Below are positions 22,371 to 40,049 of a DNA stretch of 64,000 bases, one piece after another. A program made the position numbers and the translations under genes. How positions within the stretch are numbered: position 1 is the stretch's first letter; the number at the start of each line of letters is the position of its first letter. The stretch is from Planctomycetota bacterium. GTDB lineage: Bacteria > Planctomycetota > Phycisphaerae > Sedimentisphaerales > Anaerohalosphaeraceae. The stretch covers positions 25,877 through 89,876 of the forward strand of contig DUZQ01000001.1 in NCBI GenBank assembly GCA_013349435.1, in the 5' to 3' direction. The notes beneath the pieces were generated by a model that searched no databases, was not told the origin of the DNA, and worked only from the letters and a program-made list of their open reading frames with translations.

Positions 22371-24754
22371 AAGCCAAAGCGATTATCATATTCCTTGCGT
22401 TTTCGGCGACTTTAGCTGGTGTGGTATGGATTTTACACCGGTCCTGTTCAACCCAAAAAGAAATCCGCAACGTCGTTTTAATCAGCATCGACACCTGCCG
22501 GGCTGATTATCTGAGCTGTTATGGTTGTCCCCAAAATACCACTCCTAACATAGACGCCTTTGCAGCTCAAGCTACTGTTTTCGAGAATACAATCTCGCCG
22601 GTCCCGATAACTTTGCCAGCCCATAGTTCGATACTGACCGGAACTATTCCACCTTATCATGGTGTCCACGACAACATCGACTATAAACTTGACAAGACAA
22701 ATATTACCTTAGCCGAAATACTGAAAGGTAACGGATTTACTACCGGTGGTATTATCAGCGCCTTGGTTTTGGATTCAAGATTTGGCGTTGATCAAGGCTT
22801 CGACACATACAATGACTATTTCGAAGAAGAGCGAACGACCGCCGGAAATATCACCGAGCGTGTCGGTGCCGAGACCAGCCGTCATGCCATTAACTGGCTG
22901 AAGAAGCATCAAAACGAAAATTTCTTTCTCTTTCTCCATTACTTTGAACCCCATGCCGAGTATTCACCCCCGGAGCCATTCGCTTCCAAATTCCGCGAAA
23001 AGCCCTATGCCGGGGAGATTGCCTACACCGACCATTGCATCGGGCAGGTTTTAGAGAAACTAAAAGAACTGCAGCTATATAATTCAACATTGATAATCAT
23101 AACGAGCGATCACGGTGAGATGCTCCAAGAGCACAGAGAGCCGACACACAGTTATTTTATTTACCAAAGTGCTATCAGGGTGCCCCTTATCTTCCGCTTG
23201 CCCGGTCAAGTAAAACCACAAAAAATAAAGGGCGTAGCAGGTCTGATTGATATTGTCCCTACAGTATGCTCTCTTCTCGGTATCAAAATGTCCTCTGAGG
23301 TTCAGGGAATGGATCTTTCGGCTTATGTCAAGGGTCATAAACACCAAATTCCCAAAAGGAGCATTTTCTGCGAGAGTCTCACCCCGACAAAATACGATGG
23401 CAACTCTTTGCTCGGTGTAGTTACAGACCGATGGAAATATATCCAGACCACGAGGCCGGAACTATATGATATAGTCAATGACACAACAGAATCAACAAAC
23501 CTGATAAAGCAAAAGCCACACCAGGGTCGCATTCTTCAGGATATTTTAAAACAGACACTCGAAAAATCGGTTCGTAATAAAGGATTCGAAAGCAAAATAC
23601 AACTTGACACAAAAAGCCGCAGACAGCTTGAAAGCCTTGGCTACGTCGCAGGTGGGATTATTGAGGATTTCAGTTTCGACAAAACGAGAGAGGATCCCAA
23701 AGACCTGATCAATTTCTATGTATTAAGCGTAAAAGCAACGAACCTTGCTTTTCAAGGTAAGTATCGCCAAGCCGAAGATTTGAGCAAGAAGCTCATTAAT
23801 ATAAGACCCGATAGTTATGTATGCCATGAAGTATTGGCCACTATAGCCTGGAAACAGGAAGACTATCCTGCGGCCATTGAACACCTGAACAACCTTCTTG
23901 AACTCAGGGGCGATGATGCCAAGGTTCATAATAACCTCGGGACAGTACTTCAGTTAGAAGGTAGAGAAGATGAAGCGATAACGCATTATTATATAGCACT
24001 GGAAAGTAGACCTGAATTTGTGGAAGCACATAATAATTTGGCAATGGCACTTTTGGAACGGGGCGAGCCTGACACTGCTATCAAGCACTTACAGGAAGCG
24101 TTAATTCTCTATCCCGATTATTTCGAGGCACGTTGTAATCTGGGCAATACACTTGTCAATAAGGGCATGATACATGAGGCAATCGTTGAGTATCGCCAAG
24201 CTCTCAAGATTAAAACCAACCAAGCCGAGGTATATCGCAGTCTTGCCAAAGCGTTAAGGAAACAAGGAAAGCTTGAAGAAGCTATCTGTCACTATGAGAA
24301 GGCAATCTGGTTGGATCCCAAGTTGGCTCCTGCCCAAAACAGCCTTGGCGAAATATATTATCAAAAGGGAGATTTCGATAAGGCCCTTGCTTACTGGAGC
24401 GAGGCACTGAAGATAAATCCGGAGCAGGTCAGCGTTCTTAACAATATTGCATGGCTTAAAGCAGCATACAAAGACAAAAATTTCCACGAGCCCAAAACGG
24501 CTGTACAACTTGCCCGAAAAGCCTGTGAGCTGACCAATTACAAAGGGCCGGCGTTGTTACATACTTTATCGGTTGCCTATGCGGCGGACGGCAGATTTGA
24601 CGAGGCGATTAAGACGGCTGAAAAGGCATTGCGCATCACCAAATATGAGAATCAAGCCCAATTGGTTGACGAAATTAATAGTCATCTGGAACTTTTCAAA
24701 AGGGGCATGCCCTACTATGATTCGGCTCAGCCGGAGAAAAAACGACAACCTTAA
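22367..24754 (+). CDS. sulfatase-like (alkaline-phosphatase superfamily) hydrolase/transferase fused to TPR repeats
   Basis: VVLISIDTCRADYLSCYG and TSDHGEM motifs with an N-terminal TM anchor. The TPR C-terminal half has a last ~95 aa homologous to the C-terminus of the upstream gene. The start overlaps the upstream stop (ATGA). Confidence 0.8.
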   Translation: MKAKAIIIFLAFSATLAGVVWILHRSCSTQKEIRNVVLISIDTCRADYLSCYGCPQNTTPNIDAFAAQATVFENTISPVPITLPAHSSILTGTIPPYHGVHDNIDYKLDKTNITLAEILKGNGFTTGGIISALVLDSRFGVDQGFDTYNDYFEEERTTAGNITERVGAETSRHAINWLKKHQNENFFLFLHYFEPHAEYSPPEPFASKFREKPYAGEIAYTDHCIGQVLEKLKELQLYNSTLIIITSDHGEMLQEHREPTHSYFIYQSAIRVPLIFRLPGQVKPQKIKGVAGLIDIVPTVCSLLGIKMSSEVQGMDLSAYVKGHKHQIPKRSIFCESLTPTKYDGNSLLGVVTDRWKYIQTTRPELYDIVNDTTESTNLIKQKPHQGRILQDILKQTLEKSVRNKGFESKIQLDTKSRRQLESLGYVAGGIIEDFSFDKTREDPKDLINFYVLSVKATNLAFQGKYRQAEDLSKKLINIRPDSYVCHEVLATIAWKQEDYPAAIEHLNNLLELRGDDAKVHNNLGTVLQLEGREDEAITHYYIALESRPEFVEAHNNLAMALLERGEPDTAIKHLQEALILYPDYFEARCNLGNTLVNKGMIHEAIVEYRQALKIKTNQAEVYRSLAKALRKQGKLEEAICHYEKAIWLDPKLAPAQNSLGEIYYQKGDFDKALAYWSEALKINPEQVSVLNNIAWLKAAYKDKNFHEPKTAVQLARKACELTNYKGPALLHTLSVAYAADGRFDEAIKTAEKALRITKYENQAQLVDEINSHLELFKRGMPYYDSAQPEKKRQP

Positions 24755-25617
24755 TTGGTAAGTGCAGCCGTTACACTTGCGGCATTGAACATCGCGTGTA
24801 TGAAAATCGGCCGGAAAAGAGAGCCGCTCTTTTCATAAGCATACCCCATGCAGCAGGACAGCACAAACAAGGGCGGAAAATGTGTATTCGGGTGCGATAC
24901 GGCAAAGAACAACGACGTTATGACTATCGCCTCCCAAGGCCGGCCGGTCAAGCCCCTCATCACGGATTGCAGTATCCCTCGAAACAGCATCTCCTCAAAA
25001 ACCGGGGCGATTAAAACGAGAAAAAAGAACATCACCATCCTAACTACCTGCTGTGGATGTTCCGTAACAACTGCAAGACCTTCGTTGGTCTGCATCTCGA
25101 AATCAGGCCCCGCAAGAAACCTGCCGATATGAATTGTCAGCAGTATTCCCAACAGCACCAGCGGCAAAACAGAGATGAGATTTACAACTGCTGCGACAAA
25201 ATCTCCGGTTATAGTGCGAAGATTCAGGCCGAATCCTGTCAATCTGCGCACAAAGCTTTGCCGGGCAAAACACACGAAAAAAACTATCAGCACCAGTTCA
25301 ATGATGCTTAAAGCCAAGTACTTGAACACTTCCCGGCGCCACGGAGGCGATTCGGCGGCGGCCAATTCAATAATCGCCATCACATCAAAGACGACTACCG
25401 CCCATACAGCCATCAAAACAAACGGCAGATAGACGGGCAGATTGTGCCTTCTGTCCGGGCAGTTACCCAAACCAACAGGCCCGGCACGCCCGCTGAGCCA
25501 GTACAAAAGAAACATAACTCCAAGCGCGCAAAGAGCTGTCACAAAGATATCAACCGTGTTCGCCTCTGAAGCAGCCAACACCGGTTCAAAAAAAGATTTA
25601 TCGGGGAAATTGGACAT
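24751..25617 (-). CDS. CPBP-family (CAAX/Abi) intramembrane glutamic protease
   Basis: 288 aa, polytopic, with the EEMLFRG, FAVSHP and HAMFN motifs. Confidence 0.85.
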   Translation of the reverse strand: MSNFPDKSFFEPVLAASEANTVDIFVTALCALGVMFLLYWLSGRAGPVGLGNCPDRRHNLPVYLPFVLMAVWAVVVFDVMAIIELAAAESPPWRREVFKYLALSIIELVLIVFFVCFARQSFVRRLTGFGLNLRTITGDFVAAVVNLISVLPLVLLGILLTIHIGRFLAGPDFEMQTNEGLAVVTEHPQQVVRMVMFFFLVLIAPVFEEMLFRGILQSVMRGLTGRPWEAIVITSLFFAVSHPNTHFPPLFVLSCCMGYAYEKSGSLFRPIFIHAMFNAASVTAALTN

Positions 25618-25868: not shown

Positions 25869-28529
25869 ATGAGGATTTTGACGTTTAGCCTCATCTGCGC
25901 GGCGATGGTGACTCCCTGTGCCGCCGAGGTAATCACCGTCGATGAAAACGGCGGTGCGGATTTTGTCGGCATACAGGATGCAATCGACTATTCCTGGCAT
26001 GGTGACACTATCGAGGTTTGGCCGGGGGTCTATAATGAGAGAATAAACTTTTACGGCATGAGCATCACCATAACAAGTACAGATCCGAATGACCTCTCGG
26101 TGGTCGAGGCAACGGTGATTGACGCAGGTTCTTCGGGAAACGCCGTAACATTCGACAGTGGGGAAGATGCCGCATCCTTGCTTGTCGGCTTTACCGTTCA
26201 AAATGGAGACAGGGGCATTTACTGTTACTATTCCGACCCGGCAATAGAGAAATGCATCATAAAGAACAATAATGAATCTGCGATATACGGTGTAGATGCA
26301 CAGCCGACAATTGCACATTGCCGTATTAGCGAAAACGGCGGTTCAGTCGAACACAGGGCTGTCTATGGCTGCAACGGCCGGATATCCGATTGCGTAATTA
26401 ATGATAACACAGGCGGGGCAATAGCACTTTGTGACGGGCCTATAGGGGCATGTACAGTCAGCGGGAACTCAAGTTTTGGTTTTGAAATGTGCGCGGGCAT
26501 CATCGCCAACTCTGTCATATCCGGCAATGGTGATACCGGCATAGTCAGTGGCGACGGCCAGATAATAGTGAACTGTACAATCGTGTGCAATAAGGGCAAC
26601 GGCTATACATACGGCCAAGGCGCCGACCCGATTCTAAGCAGTAATATAATCGTACTCAACTCGGGCTATGGCGTGCAGGGGTCGGCTACCCTGGCTTATA
26701 ACAATATTTGGGCAAATACTTCAGGAAGTTATGACGGCGTACCTCCGGAACCGACTGACATACACAAAAATCCCCTGTTTGCCGAAAATGGTTATTGGAA
26801 CGGCGACCCAAACTGGGTCCAGGGAGATTATCACCTGAAATCCGAGGCCGGAAGGTGGGACCCGAACAACCAAACGTGGGTCATTGACGATGTCAGCAGC
26901 CCCTGCATAGACGCCGGCCATCCCGCCTACCCGACCGATTTCGAGCCTTATCCTGACGGCAACATAATCAACCAGGGTGTTTACGGCGGGACGGAACAAG
27001 CAAGTAAATCTCCAAACGGCCAATACACCTACTGCTCAAGCATCCCTGCATGTGATATAGATGAAGACTGCAGAGTCGGAGTTTCCGATTTCACCTTAGT
27101 AACGGCTGATTGGCTCCGCACAGAGGAACTTGAGCCGAATATGGTCATTCAGGAATGGGCCGAAAGGTACAATGGGCCGGACAAAAATGATGATGACGCG
27201 TTGGCTATTACCACGGACAGTTCCGGCAGCATATATGTAACCGGCTGGAGCGAGGGTACAGACACAAGTAAGGATTATGTTACAATCAAATACGACTCGA
27301 ACGGAACAAAACTTTGGGCCGACAGGTACAATGGGCCGGGCAACGACTATGACCGTGCAGTTGCCATAGCCGCCGACAGTCTGGACAACGTTTATGTAAC
27401 AGGCTCGAGCAAGGGGACCGGGGGCAAGCTGGATTACGCCACAATTAAATACGCCTCGGACGGAACAAGGCTTTGGGTAAAGCGTTATAACGGACCGGCT
27501 GACGGGCATGATACCGCCTGCGCCGTCGGCGCGGATAGTTGGGGCGACGTGTACGTAACAGGCTGGAGCGAGGGGGCGGGCGGCGACAAGGATTATCTTA
27601 CAATCAAATATGACACCAACGGCAGCCAACTCTGGGCCGTCAGATATGATAATCCCGCCTGGGGCCTGGATGACCAAGCTAATGCTATGGCGATAGATGC
27701 CGTGGGAAATGTCTATGTAACAGGCTCCAGCAATGAAGATGCGTTTACGGACCACTACACTACAATCAAATATGACCCGAATGGAAATGAGGTTTGGGTC
27801 GCCCACTACAGCTATACCGACGAGGAAGCCAAAGCCATAGCCATAGACAGCCTGGGCAATGTCTGCGTAGCAGGTAACAGTAACGGTGCCAACGGACGCC
27901 CTGATTACGCAACAATTAAATATGACTCAGGTGGAAACGAACTTTGGGCGGCACGGTACAACGGCCCGGGCAACGATGGTGATTATCTGAATGGGATAGC
28001 GATAGACAGCGTTGACAATATCTATGTTACCGGCTCCAGTGAAAGCGCCGAGGGCGACATGGATTACGCCACTATCAAATACGACCCCAACGGAAGCGAA
28101 CTATGGGCGGCAAGATATAACGGGCCGGGCAACAGCAACGACTACGGACTCGCCCTGGCTCTGGACGGTCTTGATAATATCTATGTAAGTGGTGAAAGTT
28201 CGGGCGTCAGCGGAGATTATGCCACAGTCAAGTACGACCCGAACGGAAATGAACTTGGCCAAGCGAGGTACGACGGGCCGGGCAACGGTGATGACAGCCC
28301 GTCGGCCATTGTTATAGACAGTCTGGACAATGTTTACGTAACAGGCTGGAGCCAGGATTCGGGATACTATGACTACCTCACAATCAAATATGCTCCGAGT
28401 TATACCTGCACAACTATAATAACGGGCGATTTCGATAACGACTGCAAAATAGATTTTACAGACTTCGTGATAATGTCATCGCACTGGCTCGAATGCAACC
28501 TTGAGCCGCAGGAAGCGTGTTGGGAATAA
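25869..28529 (+). CDS. secreted right-handed beta-helix plus 7-8-blade SBBP beta-propeller protein with two dockerin-like segments
   Basis: Signal peptide; DAIDYSWHGDTIEVWPGVY and parallel beta-helix rungs (about 25930-27000); CDIDEDCRVGVSDFTLVTADWL (about 27051-27116); about 53-aa repeats of the form DYxTIKYDxxGxxLWxxRYNGPG...A(I/V)xxDSxxNVYVTG (27150-28400); and a C-terminal GDFDNDCKIDFTDFVIMSSHWL. Confidence 0.8.
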   Translation: MRILTFSLICAAMVTPCAAEVITVDENGGADFVGIQDAIDYSWHGDTIEVWPGVYNERINFYGMSITITSTDPNDLSVVEATVIDAGSSGNAVTFDSGEDAASLLVGFTVQNGDRGIYCYYSDPAIEKCIIKNNNESAIYGVDAQPTIAHCRISENGGSVEHRAVYGCNGRISDCVINDNTGGAIALCDGPIGACTVSGNSSFGFEMCAGIIANSVISGNGDTGIVSGDGQIIVNCTIVCNKGNGYTYGQGADPILSSNIIVLNSGYGVQGSATLAYNNIWANTSGSYDGVPPEPTDIHKNPLFAENGYWNGDPNWVQGDYHLKSEAGRWDPNNQTWVIDDVSSPCIDAGHPAYPTDFEPYPDGNIINQGVYGGTEQASKSPNGQYTYCSSIPACDIDEDCRVGVSDFTLVTADWLRTEELEPNMVIQEWAERYNGPDKNDDDALAITTDSSGSIYVTGWSEGTDTSKDYVTIKYDSNGTKLWADRYNGPGNDYDRAVAIAADSLDNVYVTGSSKGTGGKLDYATIKYASDGTRLWVKRYNGPADGHDTACAVGADSWGDVYVTGWSEGAGGDKDYLTIKYDTNGSQLWAVRYDNPAWGLDDQANAMAIDAVGNVYVTGSSNEDAFTDHYTTIKYDPNGNEVWVAHYSYTDEEAKAIAIDSLGNVCVAGNSNGANGRPDYATIKYDSGGNELWAARYNGPGNDGDYLNGIAIDSVDNIYVTGSSESAEGDMDYATIKYDPNGSELWAARYNGPGNSNDYGLALALDGLDNIYVSGESSGVSGDYATVKYDPNGNELGQARYDGPGNGDDSPSAIVIDSLDNVYVTGWSQDSGYYDYLTIKYAPSYTCTTIITGDFDNDCKIDFTDFVIMSSHWLECNLEPQEACWE

Positions 28530-28563
28530 CTTTTCGCCCTCCGATTGGGCAAAGGTGACAATC

Positions 28564-29024
28564 TGCGGCGAAATCCCGGCCGATGTTACGGGATTTGAGG
28601 CCGAATCCGGCTAATCGATTGTCGAATCTGCTCCAGGCAAAACAAATAAATACAACAATTAGTCCAAGCTCGATGGCGCTCAGGGCCAGGTACTTTAGAG
28701 CTTCCTGGAGCCATGAAGACAGCTCGGCAGCGAGCAGGTCAATCATCATCATTGCATCAGAGACAACAACCAGCCAGACGGCCATGAGGACAAAAGGTAA
28801 ATAGGTTGGGAATTGATTTTTTCTCTTTGGGCAGTTGGCCAGGTTGACCGGCCCTGCAAATCCGCAGGACAGTACACAAGAGATATGGCGCCAAGTGCGC
28901 AAAGGGCCGGCAGGAAGATATTAGCCACACCTGTTTTTGTGACAGCCAGGAACCTGCTTAAAACGGAGATATTTATAAGAGCAGCCATCACATTAATAAT
29001 AAGAGATAATAAGAAAGTGGTCAA
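28564..29024 (-). pseudogene. decayed N-terminal fragment of a CPBP-protease paralog (frameshifted and 3'-truncated)
   Basis: Two overlapping minus-strand frames (28749..29024 and 28456..28902) together align to residues ~20-150 of the 24751-25617 protein. For example, ALCALGAISLV and then LSCGFAGPVNLANCPKRKNQFPTYLPFVLMAVW...GFGLKSRNIGRDFAA align to ALCALGVMFLLYWLSGRAGPVGLGNCPDRRHNLPVYLPFVLMAVW...GFGLNLRTITGDFVAA. The frame switches near 28880. The catalytic motifs (EExxxR, FxxxH, HxxxN) are absent. Confidence 0.5.
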
Positions 29025-29197: not shown

Positions 29198-29353
29198 GTG
29201 AAACATATAACTATCGAAAAACGATTCTGTTCATGTCGAATGTTTGAGGGCCTGGAGGAGGTCAAACGAATCTACTGGTATGGCACAAATAACCAGAAAA
29301 ACCATTTATTTAGCGAAGTCATAAATGCACGGAAAAACCACGAGTTTCCATAG
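29198..29353 (+). CDS. candidate 51-codon upstream ORF or leader peptide (very uncertain)
   Basis: GTG at 29198 is preceded by GGAAGGAGA (29185-29193). Translation: VKHITIEKRFCSCRMFEGLEEVKRIYWYGTNNQKNHLFSEVINARKNHEFP. No family recognised. Confidence 0.25.
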   Translation: MKHITIEKRFCSCRMFEGLEEVKRIYWYGTNNQKNHLFSEVINARKNHEFP

Positions 29354-29402: not shown

Positions 29403-32400
29403 ATGAAAAGATTAATTCTCACTATAGCAGTATCGGTGTTATGCTTGTATCCTGCAAAGATGGGGCAAGCGGCAGTGCAGGATGGTGTTGAAGTAGCGCA
29501 TTGTTTTGACGACCTCAATGACAGCAGCGGTAACGGCCATACTGCTTCTCTTCAAGGAGGTGCCAATTTGTCCGGCGGGATGGTCTATTTTGACGGTAAT
29601 GGTGATTATGTTAACGTGGGTAGCGGTACATGGAGCAGCAATCCCTGTGACGGCAGCAGCAATTTTACAATTGCAATCGCCTACGCATCCTCACAAACGG
29701 GCGAGGGAGAAGAGGGAGCCGCTTTAGCTTGTATAGGCGACCCATCTGTAGAAGGAGGCTCAGGACATCTGACTATATTTACAAATAACAACGGCCAATA
29801 TGTTGACTGTTGGTATGTCGGAGCAGTTCTGGGGGGCACGCAGTACTCAGGTCTGTCTTATTCGTTCTCCGATGGAAATATGCATTGCTGCTTTATCACT
29901 TACAATGCAAGCACGGACATGGTAAAGTTATATGCGCTTGACGGTGGAAGTGCCGTAGCGGGACCAAGCGGTACCCTCGGAATTAATACTACCGGTTCAA
30001 ATGAATATCCACGGCTCGGAAGAGCACATGATGACCCTTATAATGATTTTGCAACTGTGGAACTCAACGGGCAAATCAGTCTGTTTGCCATCTGGAACAG
30101 GATTATAAGCACCTCTGAAATGGAACTTGTTGAAGATTTGTGTGTTCCGCCGAATCCCTGCAGGCCGAATAATCCAAGCCCAGCCAATCTAGATGAACAT
30201 ATCGATTATCGCAATCTTATACTGGACTGGAGTGTTGAAGGAGGATGCGATCCCTGTACGACTTATGATGTTTATTTTGGTACATCTTCACCCCCTCCAT
30301 TACAGGCCTCCGGCGTGACCAATACTGATTGGAGCTGTCCATCACCTCTAAACATAGATCAATGGTATTGGTGGCAAATAAAGGCACAAGTCCCCGGCGA
30401 TCCGTGCAGCCCCATTGAGGGCAGTGAATGGAAATTCAAGACCGGCGGAAAGGCATATAATCCCAGTCCTTATGACGGGGAAGGAAACGTACAGACTTCT
30501 TCGCAACTTAGCTGGAGTGGTGACAGCTTTGCCGACTCCTATAATGTGTACTTCGGAACGACACCGGATGGCGGTACATTTCAGGATAATACAACCGACC
30601 CCTGCTTTACTCCCACTCTGGAAGCTGAGACACCTTACTATTGGAGAATAGATGAAGTTATCGGCGGCTCGCCTCAGACGGGCGATGTCTGGTCATTTGA
30701 AACGGCACTGGCTCCGCCGGATCCGGAGGAGCTGGGCTTCGATGAAATCCTGTTTGTCCAACGGCCCAGTTTCGCCAGCGATCATTTTTATACTGATTTT
30801 ATTCACTATGATCCGGACGGTTTATTCAGGTCGGATAACGGCATTTACAAATACAATCTGACTACCCATGTAATCGCGCCTGTGATTACTGCCGCAGACA
30901 TGCCGGGAGGCCAGGGAGTTTTCTATAAGTTCGACCTGGATTGGGATGCATCTCGTATCGTATTTGATTACAAACGAGGCGTCGGTTATGGTTACCGTAT
31001 CTGGATGTGTGATATTGACGGCTCAAATCTGACCCAGATTACGACAACACCGCCGGATGAGGCGGCTAATATGGCTGAATACGACATGGGAGAGTACACT
31101 TATTCTTTCCACTATGATGATATGCATCCTTGTTTCACACAGGAAGATACAATCATTTTCACATCGACACGTTGTAAATTTACTACCCTTTGTGATTACG
31201 ACGGTGTACTGACTACACCGGTGCTTCATCGAATTAATATTGATGGAACCGGACTTGAGAAGTTGACCGACAGTCCCGTCAGTGAATTCGCACCTTCGAT
31301 GATGTCCGACGGCAGAGTGGTTTATACGCGTTGGGAATATGTCGATAAGGATTCGCTGTACTGCAAGGTTGGATACGCGATGAATCCGGACGGGAGTCAT
31401 GTAAATGAAATCATCGGCCTTGACCATCACTCGCCTCCGACTTTTAACTATTTCCGCCAGGTTCCGACTAATCCGAACAAGTTTGTCTGCGTAGGTGCGC
31501 CTCACTACTGGCAGGGCGATAATTTGGGACCGATTCTTTTGATAGACAGGACCAAGGAAGTAAGAACACATGAAGAACCCGACGACCCGACACCCGGGCC
31601 TGCTGTTACTTATGTTACACCAAAAGTTCATATCTGGCAGGAACCGGGATGGAACTTCTGGACAGGTTCCGGTTGGGTTATGGATGAGGATGGTTCTTCC
31701 GGCAAGCTCTATACAACGCCGTACCCGCTCAATGAGACTCAGTTCCTTGTTACCTGCAAGTATAATGATAGTGACTCCTGGGATACACGTGATGCATATG
31801 ATATTTATCTAATAGACGTCAGCGAGAACCATATTCCGCTTGTTAGTGTGTCTGGAACGAGCTGCTGGAATCCATATCCTTTGAAGACGCGCGATAAACC
31901 CATAAAGATAAATGCCTTAAAATTCCCTTCTTATGTGGCATCGAATCAGGGTCTTGCGCTGGTTACTGATGTTTATAAGGGCCTGGAAGGGGAAGGTGAC
32001 CCTCCTATAGCCCGCGGCGATGTGAAATATCTGCGAGTTAATATGGTCGTATCGCGCCCCTGGTCGTGCCATCGAATTTTGTTATGGGATCCTGTTGTAT
32101 CAAGTACCGGCTGGGCTGCGGCCTTGTGGCCTCGAGTCCAACTTGGTATCGTCCCCGTTGAAGATGACGGCTCCGCTTACTTTGTAGTTCCTGCAGACAG
32201 GAATATCTTTTTGCAGGCCTTGGATTCAGAATATCGTGAGCTTCAACGGGAACGAACATATATAAATTTCAGGCCGGGTGAGTTCCGTTCCTGTATTGGC
32301 TGTCATGAACAAAGCGGTCATGCACCGACGCCACCGTACGGCTCGAGCGAAGCTGTTATGGCATTTCAAAATCCACCTGTTATCCCAGAACCGATGCCCG

Positions 32401-32921
32401 GTGAGGCAGCAGGAACGGGCGACTGGGCCGGCTGGGGTGTGAAGGTTCTATATTATCCTTATGATATACAGCCAATCTTTAATGACCCCTGCAGGCCTGG
32501 TGGTAGTTGCGTTAGTTGCCACAGCGGCGGAAGTCCATCCGGTGATCTTGATCTTAGCGATGGTCTCACAGAGGCGTACAACGTTTCTTATGAAAGTTTA
32601 ACATATGGTGGATATTGCGGTCCGTTGGTTTTTGAAAATAATGACCACATGGATGATGATCTGACGCAGTTCGAGCCGCCTATGTATTTCGGCTGTCATA
32701 ATTCTTATCTTGCCTGGTGGCTTTATAATGATGCGACTCACAGGGCAAGACTTACTGACCAGGAACTGAGAACCATATTCCGATGGGTGGACACTAATTA
32801 CCAGTACTACGGCACCTATTACGGCAGGCATCATAGTGACCACTCCAGTGATCCTGATTTCAGGCGGATGCCGACAGTCGAAGAAGCAATCAGTTATGAT
32901 GCGCCATCGTGGCATAATTAA
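29403..32921 (+). CDS. secreted multidomain protein: LamG-like lectin domain, two Fn3/Ig-like modules, a TolB/hydrazine-synthase-alpha-middle-like beta-propeller region, and two CxxCH haem-c sites (the second PSCyt1-like)
   Basis: Trimmed to MKRLILTIAVSVLCLYPA (ATG 29403). The LamG_3-like segment is HCFDDLNDSSGNGHTASLQGGA...LFAIWNR, and YYWRIDEV marks repeat modules. CIGCH lies at 32292-32306 and CVSCH at 32508-32522, the latter in the context IQPIFNDPC...CVSCHSGGSPSGDLDLSDG. Confidence 0.75.
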   Translation: MKRLILTIAVSVLCLYPAKMGQAAVQDGVEVAHCFDDLNDSSGNGHTASLQGGANLSGGMVYFDGNGDYVNVGSGTWSSNPCDGSSNFTIAIAYASSQTGEGEEGAALACIGDPSVEGGSGHLTIFTNNNGQYVDCWYVGAVLGGTQYSGLSYSFSDGNMHCCFITYNASTDMVKLYALDGGSAVAGPSGTLGINTTGSNEYPRLGRAHDDPYNDFATVELNGQISLFAIWNRIISTSEMELVEDLCVPPNPCRPNNPSPANLDEHIDYRNLILDWSVEGGCDPCTTYDVYFGTSSPPPLQASGVTNTDWSCPSPLNIDQWYWWQIKAQVPGDPCSPIEGSEWKFKTGGKAYNPSPYDGEGNVQTSSQLSWSGDSFADSYNVYFGTTPDGGTFQDNTTDPCFTPTLEAETPYYWRIDEVIGGSPQTGDVWSFETALAPPDPEELGFDEILFVQRPSFASDHFYTDFIHYDPDGLFRSDNGIYKYNLTTHVIAPVITAADMPGGQGVFYKFDLDWDASRIVFDYKRGVGYGYRIWMCDIDGSNLTQITTTPPDEAANMAEYDMGEYTYSFHYDDMHPCFTQEDTIIFTSTRCKFTTLCDYDGVLTTPVLHRINIDGTGLEKLTDSPVSEFAPSMMSDGRVVYTRWEYVDKDSLYCKVGYAMNPDGSHVNEIIGLDHHSPPTFNYFRQVPTNPNKFVCVGAPHYWQGDNLGPILLIDRTKEVRTHEEPDDPTPGPAVTYVTPKVHIWQEPGWNFWTGSGWVMDEDGSSGKLYTTPYPLNETQFLVTCKYNDSDSWDTRDAYDIYLIDVSENHIPLVSVSGTSCWNPYPLKTRDKPIKINALKFPSYVASNQGLALVTDVYKGLEGEGDPPIARGDVKYLRVNMVVSRPWSCHRILLWDPVVSSTGWAAALWPRVQLGIVPVEDDGSAYFVVPADRNIFLQALDSEYRELQRERTYINFRPGEFRSCIGCHEQSGHAPTPPYGSSEAVMAFQNPPVIPEPMPGEAAGTGDWAGWGVKVLYYPYDIQPIFNDPCRPGGSCVSCHSGGSPSGDLDLSDGLTEAYNVSYESLTYGGYCGPLVFENNDHMDDDLTQFEPPMYFGCHNSYLAWWLYNDATHRARLTDQELRTIFRWVDTNYQYYGTYYGRHHSDHSSDPDFRRMPTVEEAISYDAPSWHN

Positions 32922-32986
32922 AAATTGAAATAGTTGTTTGGTATCTTAAAGATAGTTGAATAATCTTAAAATATGAAGGTGGAAAG

Positions 32987-35011
32987 GTGGATACAATACA
33001 CAACAAAAGGCTCTATGTGATATCGGTATTGATTCTGGTTTTAGCATTAACTGTAAATGCCCGGGCGTCTGATTATTATTCACCTGCGGCAGTTGCGCTT
33101 GACAATGCAGGGCAATATCTCTACATCGCCGAACACACAGCCAACCAGATTGAAGAGTTTAACACTTCGACCGAGACGGTTACAAGGACATTGTCACTGG
33201 ATAAGGCGCCTACCGGTGTGGTTTGTTCCAGCAGCGGGAAGTTGTATATAACAGCCGGTGATTATAATGGGAAAGTGTACGTAATCGACACTACCGAAAC
33301 AGAGTGGGCGGTAAACGATACCATTGATGTTGGGCATACGCCTATGTCGCCCGTACTAAGTTCCGATGGCTTGCATCTTTATATATGCAACCGTTTTGAC
33401 GGGACGGTTATGGATATTGGTACTGCTTCCGGGACGGTACTGAGCACGATTGATGTAGTTCGTGAGCCGGTGGCGGCTGCGATAACACCCACCTCTGACA
33501 AGCTGGTCGTCGTTAATCAACTGCCCGACGGCGCTGCCAACACCGGGACAACGGGTTGTGATGTTTCAGTAATGAATACTTCCGGCTATGCGGTAACGAA
33601 TATTGAGCTTTACAACGGTTCTACCGGTGCAAAAGGCGTTTGTATATCGCCGGACGGCAATTATGCCTATATAACACATATCATTGGTCGTTACCAGGTT
33701 CCGACGAGTCAGCTTGAAAGAGGCTGGATTATGACAAACGCGATGAGCATTATCAATCTTAACACGTCGCAAATCGTTAATACGGTCCTGCTCGATGATG
33801 TGGAAATGGGAGCTGCGAATCCCTGGGGCATCGCCTGTACGAGCGATGGGAGCAAATTGGTTGTCGCTCATTCAGGAAGCCATGAACTAAGTATCATAGA
33901 CAGGAACGGTGTTCATAATCGTCTTTCAAATCTGCCGTATACCGGTGGATTTTCCCAGACCTCTACTGACGTACGCAATGACCTGGGCTTTTTGTCCGGA
34001 TTGAGAAACAGAATACAACTTCCGGGCAAAGGCCCGAGGGCGGTAGCAGTCTATGGGAACAAGGCATACGTCGCTGAATATTTCTCGGACAGCATCTCGA
34101 TCATAAATATCGACACCAAAGCTGTTGAACAGGCTCTCTTAGGTTCGCAAAATCCAATGGACCAAGTCAGGCTCGGAGAATTTTATTTCTACGATGCTCA
34201 GCAGGGCACTTTTCAAAAGTGGCTCAGTTGTAACAGTTGTCATCCCGACGTACGTGCGGACGCCTTAAACTGGGACCTTGCCAACGATGGTTACGGAAGC
34301 CCCAGAAACGCCAAAAGTTTATTGAAATCGCATTACACACCTCCCGCGATGATAACAGGCATACGACCCGATGCAGAGACTGCGGTTCGTGCCGGTTTTA
34401 AGTTTATCCAGTTTGCAATTCGAACTGAAGATGACGCCGGCGCCGTCGATGCGTTCCTGGGTTCTGTTGAACCTGTTGAAAGCCCCTATCTGGTAAACGG
34501 CGAGCTGAGCGAGGCCGCCGAGCGAGGTAAGGATCTGTTCGATTCGGCATATTGCAGCGTATGTCACTACGGACGGTATTACACTGATCAATCTTCACAC
34601 GACGTGGGCACGGGCAGAGGAGGCGGTGAGTCGTTTGACACACCCACCCTGACCGAGGTGTGGCGGACGGGGCCGTATCTTCAGGATGGCCGGGCAGCAA
34701 CGATGCTGGAAGTCCTAACTACGTACAATCCAGGGGACCGGCACGGCGTTACATCGGACTTGACCGAACAACAGCGAAACGATCTTGCTGAGTATGTTTT
34801 AAGCCTTGGTGTTTCACAGGAAACGTGTATTGGTGACTTCGACGGCAATGGGGGAGTCGGCCCTGAGGACCTGGAGATTTTGGCCGCCGCCTGGCTGAGC
34901 TTTTCGGGCGGTTCCAACTGGAACCATGTTTGTGATATATCCGACCCGAACGACCTGGTTATCAACGGGAAGGATTTTGCAGTCTTTTCGGGCAACTGGT
35001 TGTGCCCTTAA
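32987..35011 (+). CDS. secreted YVTN/YncE-type beta-propeller fused to a di-haem cytochrome c peroxidase (CCP/MauG-like) domain and a C-terminal dockerin-like module
   Basis: GTG start and signal peptide. CNSCH lies at 34229-34243 and CSVCH at 34553-34567. FDTPTLTEVWRTGPYLQDGRAATMLEV is the CCP family signature. The C-terminus is GDFDGNGGVGPEDLEILAAAWL...NHVCDISDPNDLVINGKDFAVFSGNWL. Confidence 0.8.
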   Translation: MDTIHNKRLYVISVLILVLALTVNARASDYYSPAAVALDNAGQYLYIAEHTANQIEEFNTSTETVTRTLSLDKAPTGVVCSSSGKLYITAGDYNGKVYVIDTTETEWAVNDTIDVGHTPMSPVLSSDGLHLYICNRFDGTVMDIGTASGTVLSTIDVVREPVAAAITPTSDKLVVVNQLPDGAANTGTTGCDVSVMNTSGYAVTNIELYNGSTGAKGVCISPDGNYAYITHIIGRYQVPTSQLERGWIMTNAMSIINLNTSQIVNTVLLDDVEMGAANPWGIACTSDGSKLVVAHSGSHELSIIDRNGVHNRLSNLPYTGGFSQTSTDVRNDLGFLSGLRNRIQLPGKGPRAVAVYGNKAYVAEYFSDSISIINIDTKAVEQALLGSQNPMDQVRLGEFYFYDAQQGTFQKWLSCNSCHPDVRADALNWDLANDGYGSPRNAKSLLKSHYTPPAMITGIRPDAETAVRAGFKFIQFAIRTEDDAGAVDAFLGSVEPVESPYLVNGELSEAAERGKDLFDSAYCSVCHYGRYYTDQSSHDVGTGRGGGESFDTPTLTEVWRTGPYLQDGRAATMLEVLTTYNPGDRHGVTSDLTEQQRNDLAEYVLSLGVSQETCIGDFDGNGGVGPEDLEILAAAWLSFSGGSNWNHVCDISDPNDLVINGKDFAVFSGNWLCP

Positions 35012-35226: not shown

Positions 35227-35904
35227 GTGCAAGGTGTAAAAACAAAACGAGAGTTAGAAGTTCGTGATTGCGGCCTGATGGCCTACAAAGACGCGTTGAA
35301 TCTGCAAAAAAGCCTCGTTGAACAAAGACAGAACGGCCAAATCGGCAACACTATACTGATATTGGAACATCCGCCTGTAATTACGTTAGGTGTCCGCAAG
35401 GATTTGAATAAGTTGCTTGTTGATGAAGATATTCCGGCGCAAAAGGGAATTGAGATTGTGCTGGTTCGCCGCGGTGGAGGTGCCACAGCACACAACCCGG
35501 GGCAAGTTGTCCTGTACCCGATTATCAAGCTCAAGTCGCTTGGATTAGGTGTAAGCGACTATATCAGGGTTCTGGAGGCAATTGGTCTTGAACTCCTCGA
35601 ACAATTGGGAGTGTGGGCCGAGAGACGAAGAGGATTTCCGGGACTGTGGACAAAAGGCGGGAAAATAGGTTCGATAGGGGTGCAAATCAGGCGATGGACA
35701 ACTTTCCATGGAATGGCCATCAACATCAATAACGATTTGAGTATCTTCGAGACCATCGTACCCTGTGGTCTGGAGGGCGTGGAAATAACAAGTGTATTGA
35801 AGCAAACGGCCACGGAATATCCGATGACCCGGGTAAAAAAAAGATTAACGGATTTGTGTTTCAAGCACCTTGCGGGTCGAAATGTTAAATCGTTGAGTTT
35901 GTGA
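35227..35904 (+). CDS. lipB: lipoyl(octanoyl) transferase
   Basis: LEHPPVITLG and RRGGGATAHNPGQ motifs; GTG start. Confidence 0.9.
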   Translation: MQGVKTKRELEVRDCGLMAYKDALNLQKSLVEQRQNGQIGNTILILEHPPVITLGVRKDLNKLLVDEDIPAQKGIEIVLVRRGGGATAHNPGQVVLYPIIKLKSLGLGVSDYIRVLEAIGLELLEQLGVWAERRRGFPGLWTKGGKIGSIGVQIRRWTTFHGMAININNDLSIFETIVPCGLEGVEITSVLKQTATEYPMTRVKKRLTDLCFKHLAGRNVKSLSL

Positions 35905-36803
35905 GACGGCGAATGGCCGAATCGATTGGCAAACTGCCCGTATGGCTCAAGAGGAGATTCAAAACCGGCGAAACCTACAGCCACACACGCGATGTGCTTA
36001 ACTCGCTGGGCCTGGAGACGATATGCACCAATGCAAACTGTCCGAACATCGGCGAGTGCTGGTCAAGAGGCACCGCAACGGTCCTGATTTCAGGCAATGT
36101 ATGTACGCGCAATTGCAGGTTCTGCTCCGTCGCCGCCGGCAGGCCCGAACCCCCCGACCCGGACGAGCCGAGGCGGGTGGCACAGATGGCCAGGCGATTA
36201 AATCTGAAGTATCTCGTTATTACAAGCGTTACCCGAGACGATTTGCCCGACGGAGGTGCGGCACATTTTAGAAACGTGGTAAACAGGTGCAGACGCGAAA
36301 TACCTGATATGCGATTCGAGCTGCTCGTGCCCGATTTTCGAGACGGACAGGATGATGCGATAAAGATTCTTGCTGAGGCAGTGCCCTTTGTGTTCGCTCA
36401 CAATGTTGAGACCGTACCTTCACTATATCCCAAGGTTCGTGCCGGTGCCGATTACAACCTCTCTTTAGACCTGTTGAGAAGGGCCAAACAGGCATATCCC
36501 GACATCCAGACCAAATCCTCGATTATGTTAGGTCTCGGCGAGAGCGATACAGAGGTCATCAATGTCCTGAAGGACTTGCGGCGGGCACGGTGCGACCGAA
36601 TCGCAATAGGTCAGTACTTAAGGCCCGATAAAGATGCTGTAAGTGTCGTAAAATTCATATCACCGGACAAGTTCGACTGGTGGCACAAAAAGGCCGAGAG
36701 CCTGGGATTTTCGTGGGTGATGGCCTCGCCGTTCACCAGAAGCTCATTCGGCGCCGAAAAGGATAATCCGGAAAATACAAAAAGACCTCTTAATATACCT
36801 TAA
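35901..36803 (+). CDS. lipA: lipoyl synthase (radical SAM)
   Basis: CPNIGECW and CTRNCRFCSV clusters. The start overlaps the lipB stop. Confidence 0.95.
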   Translation: MRRRMAESIGKLPVWLKRRFKTGETYSHTRDVLNSLGLETICTNANCPNIGECWSRGTATVLISGNVCTRNCRFCSVAAGRPEPPDPDEPRRVAQMARRLNLKYLVITSVTRDDLPDGGAAHFRNVVNRCRREIPDMRFELLVPDFRDGQDDAIKILAEAVPFVFAHNVETVPSLYPKVRAGADYNLSLDLLRRAKQAYPDIQTKSSIMLGLGESDTEVINVLKDLRRARCDRIAIGQYLRPDKDAVSVVKFISPDKFDWWHKKAESLGFSWVMASPFTRSSFGAEKDNPENTKRPLNIP

Positions 36804-37075: not shown

Positions 37076-38476
37076 ATGAACAGGTACAAGGGGAGAAACA
37101 GGCACCTTCGCCGGGGGGCTATCCTTATTATCGCCGTGATTTTCGTCGCCGTTTTCTCATCTTTTGGACTGGCGGTGTTGACAATGTCCTCGACCAACGT
37201 CCGGGTAGCCGACAATCAACAAAAGGCCAACCGGGCGCTCGAAAGCGCGCAGTCCGGACTCGAAGTAATGAAGTACTGGCTCGGACGAGTGGCTATGCCC
37301 GGCGATACCACACCTGCAGACAGGTTCAGCACCCTGACATACCTTCTAAATTCCGATATGGGCAACGCCGGTATTTATGTCAACCAGGCTTATGACGACG
37401 ATGGTTACCCTGCATCTCTTGGCCTTGGTGACGTAGCTGTAAGCGCTCTTACGGACCAATCTTTTTCAACCTCTCTTCAAAAAACCGCCGACCTCGATGT
37501 ACTTCAAATGGATATTACAGGCAACTCCAATTCCATAGCACGAACCATCAGGGTCAATTACACCTTTGGCACAAGGGCTCATAATGTTTTCGACTACGGC
37601 GTGGCAACAAAAGGCCCTTTGAGTCTTTCCGGTAACATCGATATGAGCGGCGCCACAGTGGCTGTCGAGGCCGACGTTTATATCGAAAGTCATAATCAAA
37701 ACGAAGCTCTTTCCATCATAGGCAACTCACAAATTGCAGGTGATGTACAAATCACAAACCCCGACGCATACGTTACCCTTCAGGGTGGACAGGCCGGTAT
37801 AGGCGGAGAAACCGGGGAAGCCGCTCTCGATAACGTTACAATCGGGGCAGAACCTGCAGAGTTTCCCATTCCTCTGACCGGTTATTTCGAGCAGTATGTA
37901 CAGAACACTTTTGACCCTGCGATTCACGACACAAGTGCCGACAACACATACGAGAACATAAGGATACCCGGCGGAACCAATCCCCACTTCTCCGGCAATG
38001 TAACTCTCAACGGAATAATCTTTATCGAAACGCCTAACATCGTAACATTTACCGGAAACGTCAATATCACCGGCATGGTCATAGGTGACGGTGATATGAA
38101 TGACAATTCGGGCGCAAATCAATTGACATTCTTAGGCAACGTCAGCAGCAATCCTGTTGGCGACCTGCCCGAGACCTCTCAGTTTGACGGTATCCGGGAC
38201 GAAACCGGCACCTTTCTTATGGCGCCCGGATTCAGCGCATCTTTCGGCGGAAACTTTGACACCCTAAACGGTGCGATAGCCGCCAACGGTATCAATTTCT
38301 TCGGTAATGCAGGTGGAACAATCAACGGCTCCATATTGAACTATTCCGATACACCCATGACATTCAGCGGCAACAGTGACCTTATCTTCAACCGTTCGGG
38401 CATAACCGAGGTGCCCGCGGGTTTCGGGCCCGAGATAATACTTCATTATGTCTCGGAATCTTATTCGGAAGTGTAA
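37076..38476 (+). CDS. PilX_N-like membrane-anchored protein with a Gly/Asn-rich beta-helix-like ectodomain
   Basis: The N-terminus RRGAILIIAVIFVAVFSSFGLAVLTMSSTNVRVADNQQKANRALESAQSGLE matches the PilX N-terminal domain pattern (recall). It has no G|FTLxE prepilin site. Repeated GN..I.G rungs follow. It is a paralog of 40152-41831. Confidence 0.65.
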   Translation: MNRYKGRNRHLRRGAILIIAVIFVAVFSSFGLAVLTMSSTNVRVADNQQKANRALESAQSGLEVMKYWLGRVAMPGDTTPADRFSTLTYLLNSDMGNAGIYVNQAYDDDGYPASLGLGDVAVSALTDQSFSTSLQKTADLDVLQMDITGNSNSIARTIRVNYTFGTRAHNVFDYGVATKGPLSLSGNIDMSGATVAVEADVYIESHNQNEALSIIGNSQIAGDVQITNPDAYVTLQGGQAGIGGETGEAALDNVTIGAEPAEFPIPLTGYFEQYVQNTFDPAIHDTSADNTYENIRIPGGTNPHFSGNVTLNGIIFIETPNIVTFTGNVNITGMVIGDGDMNDNSGANQLTFLGNVSSNPVGDLPETSQFDGIRDETGTFLMAPGFSASFGGNFDTLNGAIAANGINFFGNAGGTINGSILNYSDTPMTFSGNSDLIFNRSGITEVPAGFGPEIILHYVSESYSEV

Positions 38477-38546
38477 GGCTGATAACAGCCTTGAAAAATC
38501 AAACAAAAAAACTGATTTACAGCGAAAAAATATAAAGGGTGAAGAA

Positions 38547-40049
38547 ATGAGAAACTTAAAAACTACAATCTGTTTTTTAGGATTGCTGATTGCCGGTTCC
38601 GCCGGCGCGGCGGTTCACTATGTTCCCACGGACTACCCTACTATTCAGGCTGCCATTGACGCCGCTTCCGGCGGTGATTCCATCGTGATAAACCCCGGAA
38701 CGTATTCGGGCCCCGGTAATTACAGCATCAGCTTCAAAGGTAAGGCAATTACGGTTCAAAGTACCGACCCCGGTGATCCTTATGTAGTTAATACAACTGT
38801 AATTGACTGCCAGGGATCGCCTTCAACGCGGGGCTTCGTCTTTCATTCCGGCGAAACGTCGGATTCAAAACTGACGGGCCTGACAATCACCGGCGGCGAT
38901 AACTTTTTGGGTGGTGGTATATACTGCTATAACAGCAGCAGCCCTGCAATCAGCAAATGTGTTATTACCGCTAATTCAGCCGTATTCGGTGGGGCGGTCG
39001 CGGTTGGAAACAACAACAGCCAACCCACTATTTCCGCTTGCACTATCACGGAAAACTCCGCTATGGTGGGCGGCGGCGCAATATATTGCATTGGTTCGGG
39101 TCCCAGATTCGAAAGCTGCATCATTGCAGGAAACTTTGCGCCCCGAGGCGGTGCCGTCTATAGCCATAACCCCGGCAATTCCATCATAGCCAATTGCACA
39201 ATCACTTCAAATGCAGCCTCTGTATGGGGAGGGGCTTTCTATTGTTTCGCATCAGGCAACATGGATATAAGTAACTGCATCCTCTGGGACAATACCGCCT
39301 CAAGTGCATCGGAAATGATGGTCGGCAATGTGGGCGCACCCGCTTCTGTCAGCATTTCATATTGCGATATCCAGGGCCTGTCGGCTGGTGTAGTAGCCAA
39401 CAGCGGCTCGACCGTCAATTGGGGACAGGGTAATATCGACCTTGACCCTATGTTTGTAAGCGGCGGTCAGATGGACAGCATCACCAAAGTTTATACCAAG
39501 GGCAATTACCACTTGACTGAAGACTCTCCCTGCATCGACGCCGGTAACCCCTCGTTCGTTGCAGGTACACAAATCGATATTGACGGTGAAAGCAGGTTAT
39601 CTGGAGCGGCGGTGGATATCGGAGCAGATGAATTCGCAGTCGTATCGACCATAAATGCTGACATCAAGTTCAGGCCCAGGGCACTAAACCTGAGAAGCAG
39701 GGGCAGGTGGACGCTCTGCACCATAAAGCTTGATGACGGCCATGACGTTCGGGATATAGCCGTTGACAGCATCAAACTGAACAACGAAGTGAAACCTTCG
39801 GCAGCCAAAGCTTTCCGATTCAGCAAGAAGCTTTTTGTTATGTTCAACCGGGCGGAGGTTGAAAACACATTAAGCGATGCCCAGGGATCTGCGCTGATTG
39901 TTGTCACCGGAAATCTTGGAGATGGTACCGTCTTTGAGGGACAGGATACCATCAAGATAGTAAACGGATACTGTAACATGAAAAACAAAACATTTGGGAA
40001 GCTAAGCAAGCACTTCAAGCAAAAATGCGGCAAGATTTGCAAAAAGTAA
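38547..40049 (+). CDS. secreted right-handed beta-helix (pectin-lyase-fold) protein with a C-terminal Ig-like domain and a Lys-rich tail
   Basis: Trimmed to MRNLKTTICFLGLLIAGSAGA. YPTIQAAIDAASGGDSIVINPGTY is followed by about 22-aa rungs (TGGDN..GGGIYC, ANSAVFGGAVA, ENSAMVGGGAIYC...). The C-terminal part has RPRALNLRSRGRWTLCTIKL... Confidence 0.7.
   Translation: MRNLKTTICFLGLLIAGSAGAAVHYVPTDYPTIQAAIDAASGGDSIVINPGTYSGPGNYSISFKGKAITVQSTDPGDPYVVNTTVIDCQGSPSTRGFVFHSGETSDSKLTGLTITGGDNFLGGGIYCYNSSSPAISKCVITANSAVFGGAVAVGNNNSQPTISACTITENSAMVGGGAIYCIGSGPRFESCIIAGNFAPRGGAVYSHNPGNSIIANCTITSNAASVWGGAFYCFASGNMDISNCILWDNTASSASEMMVGNVGAPASVSISYCDIQGLSAGVVANSGSTVNWGQGNIDLDPMFVSGGQMDSITKVYTKGNYHLTEDSPCIDAGNPSFVAGTQIDIDGESRLSGAAVDIGADEFAVVSTINADIKFRPRALNLRSRGRWTLCTIKLDDGHDVRDIAVDSIKLNNEVKPSAAKAFRFSKKLFVMFNRAEVENTLSDAQGSALIVVTGNLGDGTVFEGQDTIKIVNGYCNMKNKTFGKLSKHFKQKCGKICKK

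Follow-up and report, generated by a model that had tools for sequence, protein, structure and literature searches.

We analysed a stretch of 64,000 nucleotides from an uncultured Planctomycetota bacterium (assembly GCA_013349435.1, contig DUZQ01000001.1, positions 25,877 to 89,876 of the forward strand). This whole stretch is called the window below, and positions are counted from its first letter. The window contains two neighbouring open reading frames on the plus strand, the products of which we refer to as protein 1 and protein 2. Judged by homology, the gene pair is a non-anammox, distant hydrazine-synthase-like module, in which an alpha-like gene is followed by a fused beta-gamma gene. 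The original prediction for this DNA, made from the sequence alone, had described a pair of adjacent, secreted haem c proteins with beta-propellers, one with a lectin-like region and the other fused to a cytochrome c peroxidase (CCP). Both reading frames, and the sequence contexts quoted for them (IQPIF..C..CVSCHSGG..GDLDLS, FDTPTL..GPYLQDG and YYWRIDEV), were present in the translations.

The features of the pair are collected in Table 1. The two genes are separated by 65 bp and are probably co-transcribed as a two-gene module. A promoter and terminator scan over the pair returned counts at the shuffle background, and therefore we draw no inference from it. An alternative upstream ATG at 29325 would extend the product of gene 1 to 1198 aa. 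The expected secretion is consistent with both N-termini, which on inspection of the translations resemble Sec signal peptides: protein 1 begins with MKR, a hydrophobic stretch and GQA/A, and protein 2 with KR, a hydrophobic stretch and ARA/S. The remainder of protein 2 is laid out as a seven-bladed YVTN propeller, a CCP-like di-haem domain and a dockerin-like tail.

Table 1. Features of the gene pair (positions in the window; aa, residues of the respective protein).
Feature	Position	Strand	Details
Gene 1: HzsA-related (hydrazine synthase alpha-like) di-haem c protein with N-terminal accessory arm	29403..32921	+	1172 aa from MKRLIL
Probable Sec signal peptide, protein 1	29403..29471	+	aa 1-23, cleavage after GQA; inspection only
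LamG/ConA-like jelly-roll candidate	29592..30119	+	aa ~64-239; Pfam Laminin_G_3 sub-threshold
Fn3/Ig-like beta-sandwich module 1	30222..30446	+	aa ~274-348; WYWWQIKA...WKFKT; beta strands in model
Fn3/Ig-like beta-sandwich module 2	30507..30707	+	aa ~369-435; YYWRIDEV...WSFET; beta strands in model
N-terminal beta-propeller of HzsA-like core	30738..31982	+	aa ~446-860; confident all-beta model
HZS_alpha middle domain	32016..32309	+	aa 872-969, ends in first haem site; Pfam PF18582
CxxCH no. 1, protein 1	32292..32306	+	C964/C967/H968; equivalent of HZS haem alphaI
CxxCH no. 2, protein 1	32508..32522	+	C1036/C1039/H1040; equivalent of HZS haem alphaII
His1113	32739..32741	+	aligned with HzsA His772 (distal ligand of haem alphaII)
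Gene 2: fused HzsB-HzsC-like protein	32987..35011	+	674 aa; GTG start behind GAAGGTGGAAAG
Probable Sec signal peptide, protein 2	32987..33067	+	aa 1-27, cleavage after ARA; inspection; model helix 2-23
HzsB-like seven-bladed beta-propeller	33071..34141	+	aa 29-385; pLDDT mostly >90
Conserved propeller loop RYQVPTSQLERGWIMTN	33689..33739	+	aa 235-251; aligns with HzsB HQTPKNWLPVCEAENG
HzsC-like / CCP-MauG-superfamily di-haem domain	34142..34822	+	aa 386-612; Pfam CCP_MauG and Cytochrom_C
CxxCH no. 1, protein 2	34229..34243	+	C415/C418/H419; equivalent of HZS haem gammaI / CCP peroxidatic haem
CxxCH no. 2, protein 2	34553..34567	+	C523/C526/H527; equivalent of HZS haem gammaII
His586 (DRHG), candidate distal ligand of gammaII-like haem	34742..34744	+	invariant; aligned with HzsC DMHG
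Dockerin-like two-repeat C-terminal tail (GDFDGNGGVGPEDLEILAAAWL ... DISDPNDLVINGKDFAVFSGNWL)	34832..35008	+	motif and two helices in model

Homology to hydrazine synthase subunits

Residues 436-1172 of protein 1 are collinear with HzsA, the alpha subunit of hydrazine synthase (HZS). The only Pfam match on the whole protein was the HZS_alpha middle domain (69.3 bits against a cut-off of 26.6, E = 4.2e-19, profile positions 1-98 of 98). A search for this domain had been suggested in the original prediction and turned out to be the key lead. The protein also matched the NCBIfam family hydrazine_alpha, and its sole match in the PDB by sequence was HzsA of 'Ca. Kuenenia stuttgartiensis' (5c2v_A). 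A profile of the alpha-like family retrieved the same chain at 6e-24, the match being made up of four collinear segments between chain residues 86 and 767; segments falling in the propeller aligned with chain residues 86-121 and 327-354. The AlphaFold model of protein 1 was confident in the core. Its top Foldseek match was again 5c2v_A (E = 1.7e-27, TM 0.63, alignment of 868 columns), and no other full-length analogue appeared in the search.

Protein 2 resembles the other two HZS subunits. Pfam identified a lactonase-type propeller, CCP_MauG and Cytochrom_C, and NCBIfam the hydrazine_BC, beta and gamma families. The best PDB matches of the sequence included HzsC and HzsB. A profile of the fusion family matched 5c2v_B at 2.6e-41 (residues 10-349 of 352) and 5c2v_C at 1.6e-36 (residues 41-313), and the AlphaFold model (predicted local distance difference test score, pLDDT, of 80) had 5c2v_B as its top Foldseek match with a TM of 0.86. 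The predicted fusion of a YVTN-type propeller with a CCP/MauG di-haem domain was borne out: TIGR02276 repeats scored 50 bits against a cut-off of 27.85, and CCP_MauG passed its threshold marginally (28.9 against 25.6 bits, profile positions 3-76 of 149).

Within the CCP/MauG superfamily, the di-haem domain is specifically HzsC-like, which refines the original assignment to CCP/MauG enzymes. With phmmer, the domain matched HzsC in the PDB at 1.5e-25, MbnH at 3.7e-10 and CCP at 2e-5, the E-values to CCPs being 15-20 orders of magnitude weaker than that to HzsC. Like CCP/MauG/MbnH proteins (PF03150), the domain has two CxxCH sites, the first haem being followed by an RNA-type motif (SPRNAKSL) and the second by the motif (F)DTPTL...PY.xDG. 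In contrast to those proteins, it is joined to a propeller and has an HzsA-like protein as its partner. In CCP and MauG, the electron-transfer haem has Met and Tyr, respectively, as sixth ligand, and a Trp between the haems is conserved. Where CCPs have the Met ligand, protein 2 has Tyr579, a position whose conservation in the family is below the threshold of 80%. His586, located in a three-residue insertion relative to CCPs that is common to HzsC, is invariant and may ligate the gammaII-like haem instead. The position of the Trp is taken by Ile, Val, Met or Ala in the 31 homologues of protein 2 that were compared, and the isoleucine of protein 2 (Ile456) argues against a standard CCP mechanism. 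With neither the Trp nor the Met position conserved, we rejected the idea that protein 2 works as a classical CCP peroxidase.

All four CxxCH sites lie at exactly the positions originally predicted for them, and all are invariant in the homologues (43 for protein 1 and 31 for protein 2), with identities down to about 37-50%. Residue shuffles gave a chance expectation of 0.02 motifs in protein 1 and 0.004 in protein 2. The second site of protein 1 had been attributed to the planctomycete PSCyt1 module, with which it shares the short IQPI...C..CH context. This attribution had to be dropped. PSCyt1 (PF07635) gave no match to the isolated C-terminal 163 aa at E<=10 or to the whole protein at E<=0.1, and weak PSCyt1 matches occurred in 2 of 46 relatives (2e-4). 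Instead, DIQPIFxxxCxxCH of protein 1 aligns with HzsA DIQPILDAKCAMCH, the haem-alphaII site, and the surrounding region aligns with the haem-alphaII domain of HzsA across about 130 residues. His1113 is invariant in 43 of 43 homologues and is aligned with alphaHis772 (chain residue H745, with the offset of 27 taken from C583/C586/H587), suggesting that it is the distal ligand of the alphaII-like haem.

A further conserved element is a propeller loop of protein 2 (aa 235-251), in which R235, Y236, Q242, R245 and G246 are invariant and position 244 is E or D in 31 of 31 sequences. The loop has low pLDDT in the model. In HZS, the HzsB loop beta245-260 nears the inter-haem tunnel (PMC12607021), and from the alignment the loop of protein 2 is its likely counterpart. 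Glu244 may likewise correspond to the magnesium-binding beta-loop Glu of HZS.

Taken as a whole, HZS (PDB 5C2V) provided the best structural and sequence matches of the pair in the PDB. It shares with protein 1 the order of propeller, middle domain and di-haem domain in the alpha subunit, and with protein 2 the order of seven-bladed propeller and CCP-like di-haem domain in beta and gamma; all four CxxCH sites, the histidine aligned with alphaHis772 and the conserved propeller loop also recur in the pair. Beta and gamma are fused in HzsBC of 'Ca. Scalindua' as they are in protein 2. Identity to HZS in the structural alignments is only 16-22%.

Departures from hydrazine synthase and known relatives

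We used the curated NCBIfam equivalog cut-offs (NF052339 for alpha, NF052342 for the beta-gamma fusion) as the test for a bona fide HZS. All scores stayed far below them: 45.2 against 800 for alpha, 138 bits (3e-40) against 1250 for the BC fusion, 89 against 560 for beta and 88 against 625 for gamma.

The roles of residues in HZS were taken from PMC12758564 and PMC12607021. At haem alphaI of HZS, the proximal ligand is Tyr591, four residues after the His of CxxCH, and His587 is diverted to zinc (PMC12758564, PMC12607021). The corresponding residue of protein 1 is Gly972, and across the 43 homologues this position is G, N, K, S, R or T, never Tyr. The HMM alignment of protein 1 to HzsA stops at Ser590, and the zinc ligand Cys303 could not be aligned. 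The lack of Tyr591/Ser590 in protein 1 suggests that its alphaI-like haem is probably ligated by His. Haem gammaI of HZS has a third covalent link, gammaCys165, and gammaAsp168 on the distal side (PMC12758564, PMC12607021). In HzsC, both residues lie in a segment ('vCGRDpg') that aligns as an insertion against the family profile and that protein 2 lacks (HzsC numbering was checked, C102/C105/H106 being chain residues 63/66/67). Ile456 of protein 2 stands where HzsC has gammaHis144 and CCP/MauG enzymes have the inter-haem Trp, and the HzsC-specific insertions around haem gammaII are missing as well. Conversely, HZS has neither the LamG-like/Fn3-like arm nor the dockerin-like tail of the pair, and the order alpha then beta-gamma is the reverse of that in anammox bacteria (PMC12758564). 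No other open reading frame in the 64 kb contains more than one CxxCH, and no gene for HDH/HAO or another anammox partner was found there. The sequence evidence thus indicates that the gene pair does not make hydrazine.

At the sequence level, such pairs have precedents, although the original prediction knew of no characterised example. In metagenome-assembled genomes (MAGs) of Phycisphaerae UBA1845, a fused hzsBC-like gene was reported to follow directly on an hzsA-like gene, and a widespread HZS-like family acting on other substrates was proposed (Dalcin Martins 2023, PMC10732223). Hagglund 2025 (PMC12758564) distinguished four clades (I-IV) of co-located homologues, documented the loss of key residues and rejected cryptic anammox. 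NCBI names close relatives of protein 1 'HzsA-related protein'. The pair described here agrees with these non-anammox homologues in its gene order, with the alpha-like gene directly before a fused beta-gamma gene, its Planctomycetota host and the loss of key HZS residues. From the clade descriptions in PMC12758564, we infer that it probably belongs to clade IV, which has no FG-GAP/CRTAC1 or ABC-transporter neighbour gene, as is the case at the window locus. In clades I-III, in contrast, the alphaII site and the distal His are absent or lost, both being retained here, and the CCP-Trp position is Trp instead of Ile; clade I has additional N-terminal c554-type haem motifs, of which there are none here. 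The pair is a further member of an already described, uncharacterised HZS-like kind, and its discovery is incremental. LamG, Fn3, dockerin and carbohydrate modules are mentioned in neither PMC10732223 nor PMC12758564.

Pairing, distribution and accessory modules

Searches with full-length protein 1 were dominated by matches to the Fn3 and LamG modules, and the alpha-like core was used as the query instead. The core had at least 1,015 matches and 4,165 clusters at 50% identity (E<=1e-3), and was found at no fewer than 592 loci in GTDB species representatives, in Planctomycetota, Verrucomicrobiota, Hydrogenedentota, Lentisphaerae and Armatimonadota. Published surveys describe alpha homologues as few. 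The beta-gamma fusion family comprises more than 4,375 clusters at 90% identity, which is a lower bound.

The adjacency of the two genes is conserved in relatives, an alpha-like gene lying directly upstream of the beta-gamma-like gene in loci L001, L002, L003 and L026. Among 22 beta-gamma loci with at least 3.5 kb of sequence on both sides, 17 (77%) had a same-strand alpha-like gene, which was immediately upstream in 12 of the 17; the spacing at paired loci was usually below 100 bp. In four metagenome loci (L085, L101, L116 and L124), two or three tandem alpha-like paralogues precede a single beta-gamma-like gene, which suggests that alpha subunits are interchangeable for one beta-gamma partner there. 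In a distance tree, a divergent group was mostly paired and a large clade of alpha-like proteins of about 780 aa was solitary. Protein 1 fell into a small subclade (with L002, L083, L095, L003, L026, L012 and L064) that is mostly paired and mostly extended at the N-terminus. The solitary proteins of about 780 aa (among L003-L082, GTDB species representatives) had all haem sites conserved and no conserved neighbours, only sporadic Gfo/Idh/MocA, sulfatase and ThuA genes.

Genomic context was otherwise variable. Beyond the gene pair itself, the window shares none with its closest relative, L002. At L001 (GCA_942493245.1, a region of 2.11 Mb), the pair adjoins ThuA, HEAT-ThuA, Gfo/Idh/MocA, xylose-isomerase-like TIM and 3-keto-disaccharide-hydrolase genes, and on the other side a cluster of NrfD, 4Fe-4S and multihaem cytochrome genes, a possible redox partner context that was not seen in the window.

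The accessory modules of the pair are additions specific to the small subclade. The basic form of the family, with an alpha of about 780 aa and a beta-gamma of about 615 aa, has no accessory module and accounts for the majority of members, suggesting that glycan targeting is an add-on of the subclade and not the core function. The lectin region of the original prediction found partial support: Laminin_G_3 (PF13385) covered nearly its full profile (positions 1-149 of 151) at 19.1 bits, below the cut-off of 27.6 (E = 0.0016), and the model of the region (pLDDT 22-45) is too unreliable for a fold call. Among 45 diverse N-extended alpha-like proteins, 11 had a confident match to Laminin_G_3, and F5_F8_type_C occurred in 4, NPCBM in 3 and Laminin_G_2 in 4, indicating that fusions of lectin-type modules to HzsA-like cores, including the LamG fusion of which no characterised example was known at first reading, are recurrent. 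The two Ig/Fn3 modules also seen at first reading are truly repeats of one another (34% identity, E = 6e-7) and have no Pfam match; stretches homologous to module 1 are annotated as fn3 or Pur_ac_phosph_N in other proteins.

For the dockerin-like module, two repeats of a DxDxDG-type loop and a helix are visible as expected. Pfam dockerin (PF00404) gave no match even at E<=10, and no search for a cohesin partner was made. The tail also occurs on the L002 and L003 orthologues, has variants in L026 and L095 and is absent from 78 of 80 family members. Within the window, one other such tail was found, on a secreted protein of 886 aa encoded at 25869-28529 (+) that combines a right-handed beta-helix with SBBP beta-propeller repeats and ends in the same dockerin-like sequence (GDFDNDCKIDFTDF...) as protein 2. 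In L083 (2603-6859), the modules sit on the other partner: the beta-gamma-like protein is extended at its C-terminus by an array of Fn3-like repeats and CBM/LamG-like modules about 800 aa long, and the alpha-like protein is bare. The presence of accessory modules on either partner fits two proteins working as one unit.

Possible function of the gene pair

We consider it probable (roughly 0.6) that the two proteins form a secreted, HZS-like complex with four haems and two active sites that acts as a reductase of a small oxidant and for which the accessory modules serve as a tether. This proposal builds on the homology, the conserved haem sites and the synteny, and takes complex formation, ligation states, substrate and localisation by analogy from HZS. 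Both proteins would be exported by the Sec system, receive their haems outside the cytoplasm and assemble into a single four-haem complex, with the invariant propeller loop at the subunit interface. The gammaII-like haem (C523xxCH and His586), with bis-His ligation, would accept electrons from a periplasmic carrier and pass them to the gammaI-like haem of the CCP-peroxidatic type (C415xxCH), which would be open and reduce the oxidant. Peroxide, NO or a related N- or O-oxide are conceivable, the substrate and the direction of catalysis being guesses. The alphaI-like haem (C964xxCH), with ordinary His ligation and likewise open, might provide the second reactive site, and the alphaII-like haem (C1036xxCH and His1113) a bis-His electron-transfer or structural haem. 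The arm and tail would most likely serve to anchor it on a surface or scaffold rich in glycans.

Several observations weigh against this proposal. The inter-haem Trp of CCP/MauG (2c1u 'QFWDG') is replaced by Ile456; the signal peptides, the LamG-like region and the dockerin-like tail are assigned by inspection or sub-threshold matches; and beyond the two comparative papers, literature searches turned up no functional or expression data on non-anammox homologues. Moreover, a beta-gamma gene lies within 6 kb at only 2 of 80 genome loci with a core of the protein 1 type and is lacking at 76 of them, and most alpha-like proteins of about 780 aa, which share 43-47% identity with the core of protein 1, have none within this distance. 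An alpha-like protein can evidently exist without an adjacent partner. The low count, together with the 5 of 22 well-flanked beta-gamma loci that have no alpha-like gene and the passing CCP_MauG score, would suit independent neighbours, protein 2 being a stand-alone propeller-CCP peroxidase for peroxide detoxification and protein 1 a separate di-haem surface protein. We regard such independence as improbable, given the frequent close spacing on the same strand at well-flanked beta-gamma loci, the rule of pairing in the subclade of protein 1, the complementary distribution of accessory modules between partners, the invariant propeller loop and the loss of the CCP Trp and Met ligand; in HZS, too, the homologous proteins are obligate partners in one complex (5C2V). 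A carbohydrate-targeted extracellular redox system, in which the haems act on or beside a polysaccharide or surface glycan, is unlikely but deserves slightly more attention. There, for example, a glycan-bound group would be changed oxidatively or reductively, the LamG and Fn3 modules would bind the substrate and the dockerin-like tail would dock a partner. The LamG-like region of protein 1, the recurrence of glycan-binding-type modules on HzsA-like cores (45 N-extended relatives), the dockerin-like tails of the subclade and the sulfatase and Gfo/Idh/MocA genes near some relatives and in the window all point in this direction. Yet the LamG call is sub-threshold in an unreliable part of the model, and the basic family form without accessory modules indicates that glycan binding is not needed for catalysis. 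The neighbourhoods yielded no conserved carbohydrate-active gene, sulfatases abound in such genomes to the point that their presence at 10 of 80 loci is weak evidence, and the haem sites of the HZS fold, being buried, are better suited to small molecules than to polymers (5C2V; PMC12607021).

A cryptic, divergent HZS, and with it an unrecognised anammox-type metabolism in a planctomycete outside Brocadiia, was raised as a possibility for the Phycisphaerae UBA1845 MAGs (PMC10732223) and would account for operon-like homologues of all three HZS subunits with four conserved haem sites. We give it almost no credence and rejected it: the equivalog cut-offs are missed more than five-fold, alphaTyr591, gammaCys165, gammaAsp168 and gammaHis144 are all absent, the 64 kb contain no HDH/HAO or other multihaem gene, the family extends over heterotrophic Planctomycetota, Verrucomicrobiota, Hydrogenedentota and others, and the same negative conclusion was drawn for the homologues in PMC12758564. 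A more speculative variant, to which we assign a low probability, is an ancestral-type 'tunnel' enzyme with two active sites that performs coupled small-molecule N or O chemistry outside anammox and is anchored to glycan surfaces in the subclade; for instance, NO or peroxide could be reduced at the gamma-like haem and the product converted further at the alpha-like haem. If true, the nitrogen or reactive-species metabolism of heterotrophic Planctomycetota and Verrucomicrobiota would have a widespread branch that has gone unrecognised, and the pair would be a living model for the origin of HZS.

HZS has long been viewed as an orphan enzyme. To our knowledge, the non-anammox alpha and beta-gamma pairs are its only known relatives, and none has been characterised. 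They bear on the question of where HZS came from, and the spread of the family over several phyla, in mostly heterotrophic bacteria, suggests a function that is common in sediments, soils and bioreactors. The subclade with anchoring modules and a retained alphaII site would be a sensible choice for expression and biochemistry. There is also a risk for annotation, as HZS-like genes can be, and have been, read as hints of 'novel anammox' organisms. Locus L018 (CAYYAQ010000206.1), in a MAG labelled 'uncultured candidatus Brocadiaceae bacterium', has a solitary HzsA-related gene of the non-anammox type and is an example of how a gene or bin of this sort could pass for an anammox marker.

The surroundings of the pair in the window contain further genes of note. 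Upstream, tandem genes for large TPR-rich proteins (20031-22370 and 22367-24754, +) overlap by 4 bp, the second encoding a sulfatase-TPR fusion. The gene of the SBBP/beta-helix protein mentioned above is flanked by a CPBP/Rce1-like membrane protease gene (24751-25617, -) and a reading frame of 148 aa (28456-28902, -) that closely repeats the N-terminal part of the protease (…CP.R.N..P.YLPFVLMAVW…), which looks like a partial duplication around an inserted gene. Downstream of the pair lie lipB-lipA (35227-36803) and, just beyond, three plus-strand genes (37076-38476, 38448-40049 and 40152-41831), in which two large proteins with pilin-like N-termini flank a beta-helix/Chlamydia-PMP-repeat protein. 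The first of the pilin-like proteins matches PilX_N in Pfam, and the second has a similar N-terminal sequence with no Pfam match.

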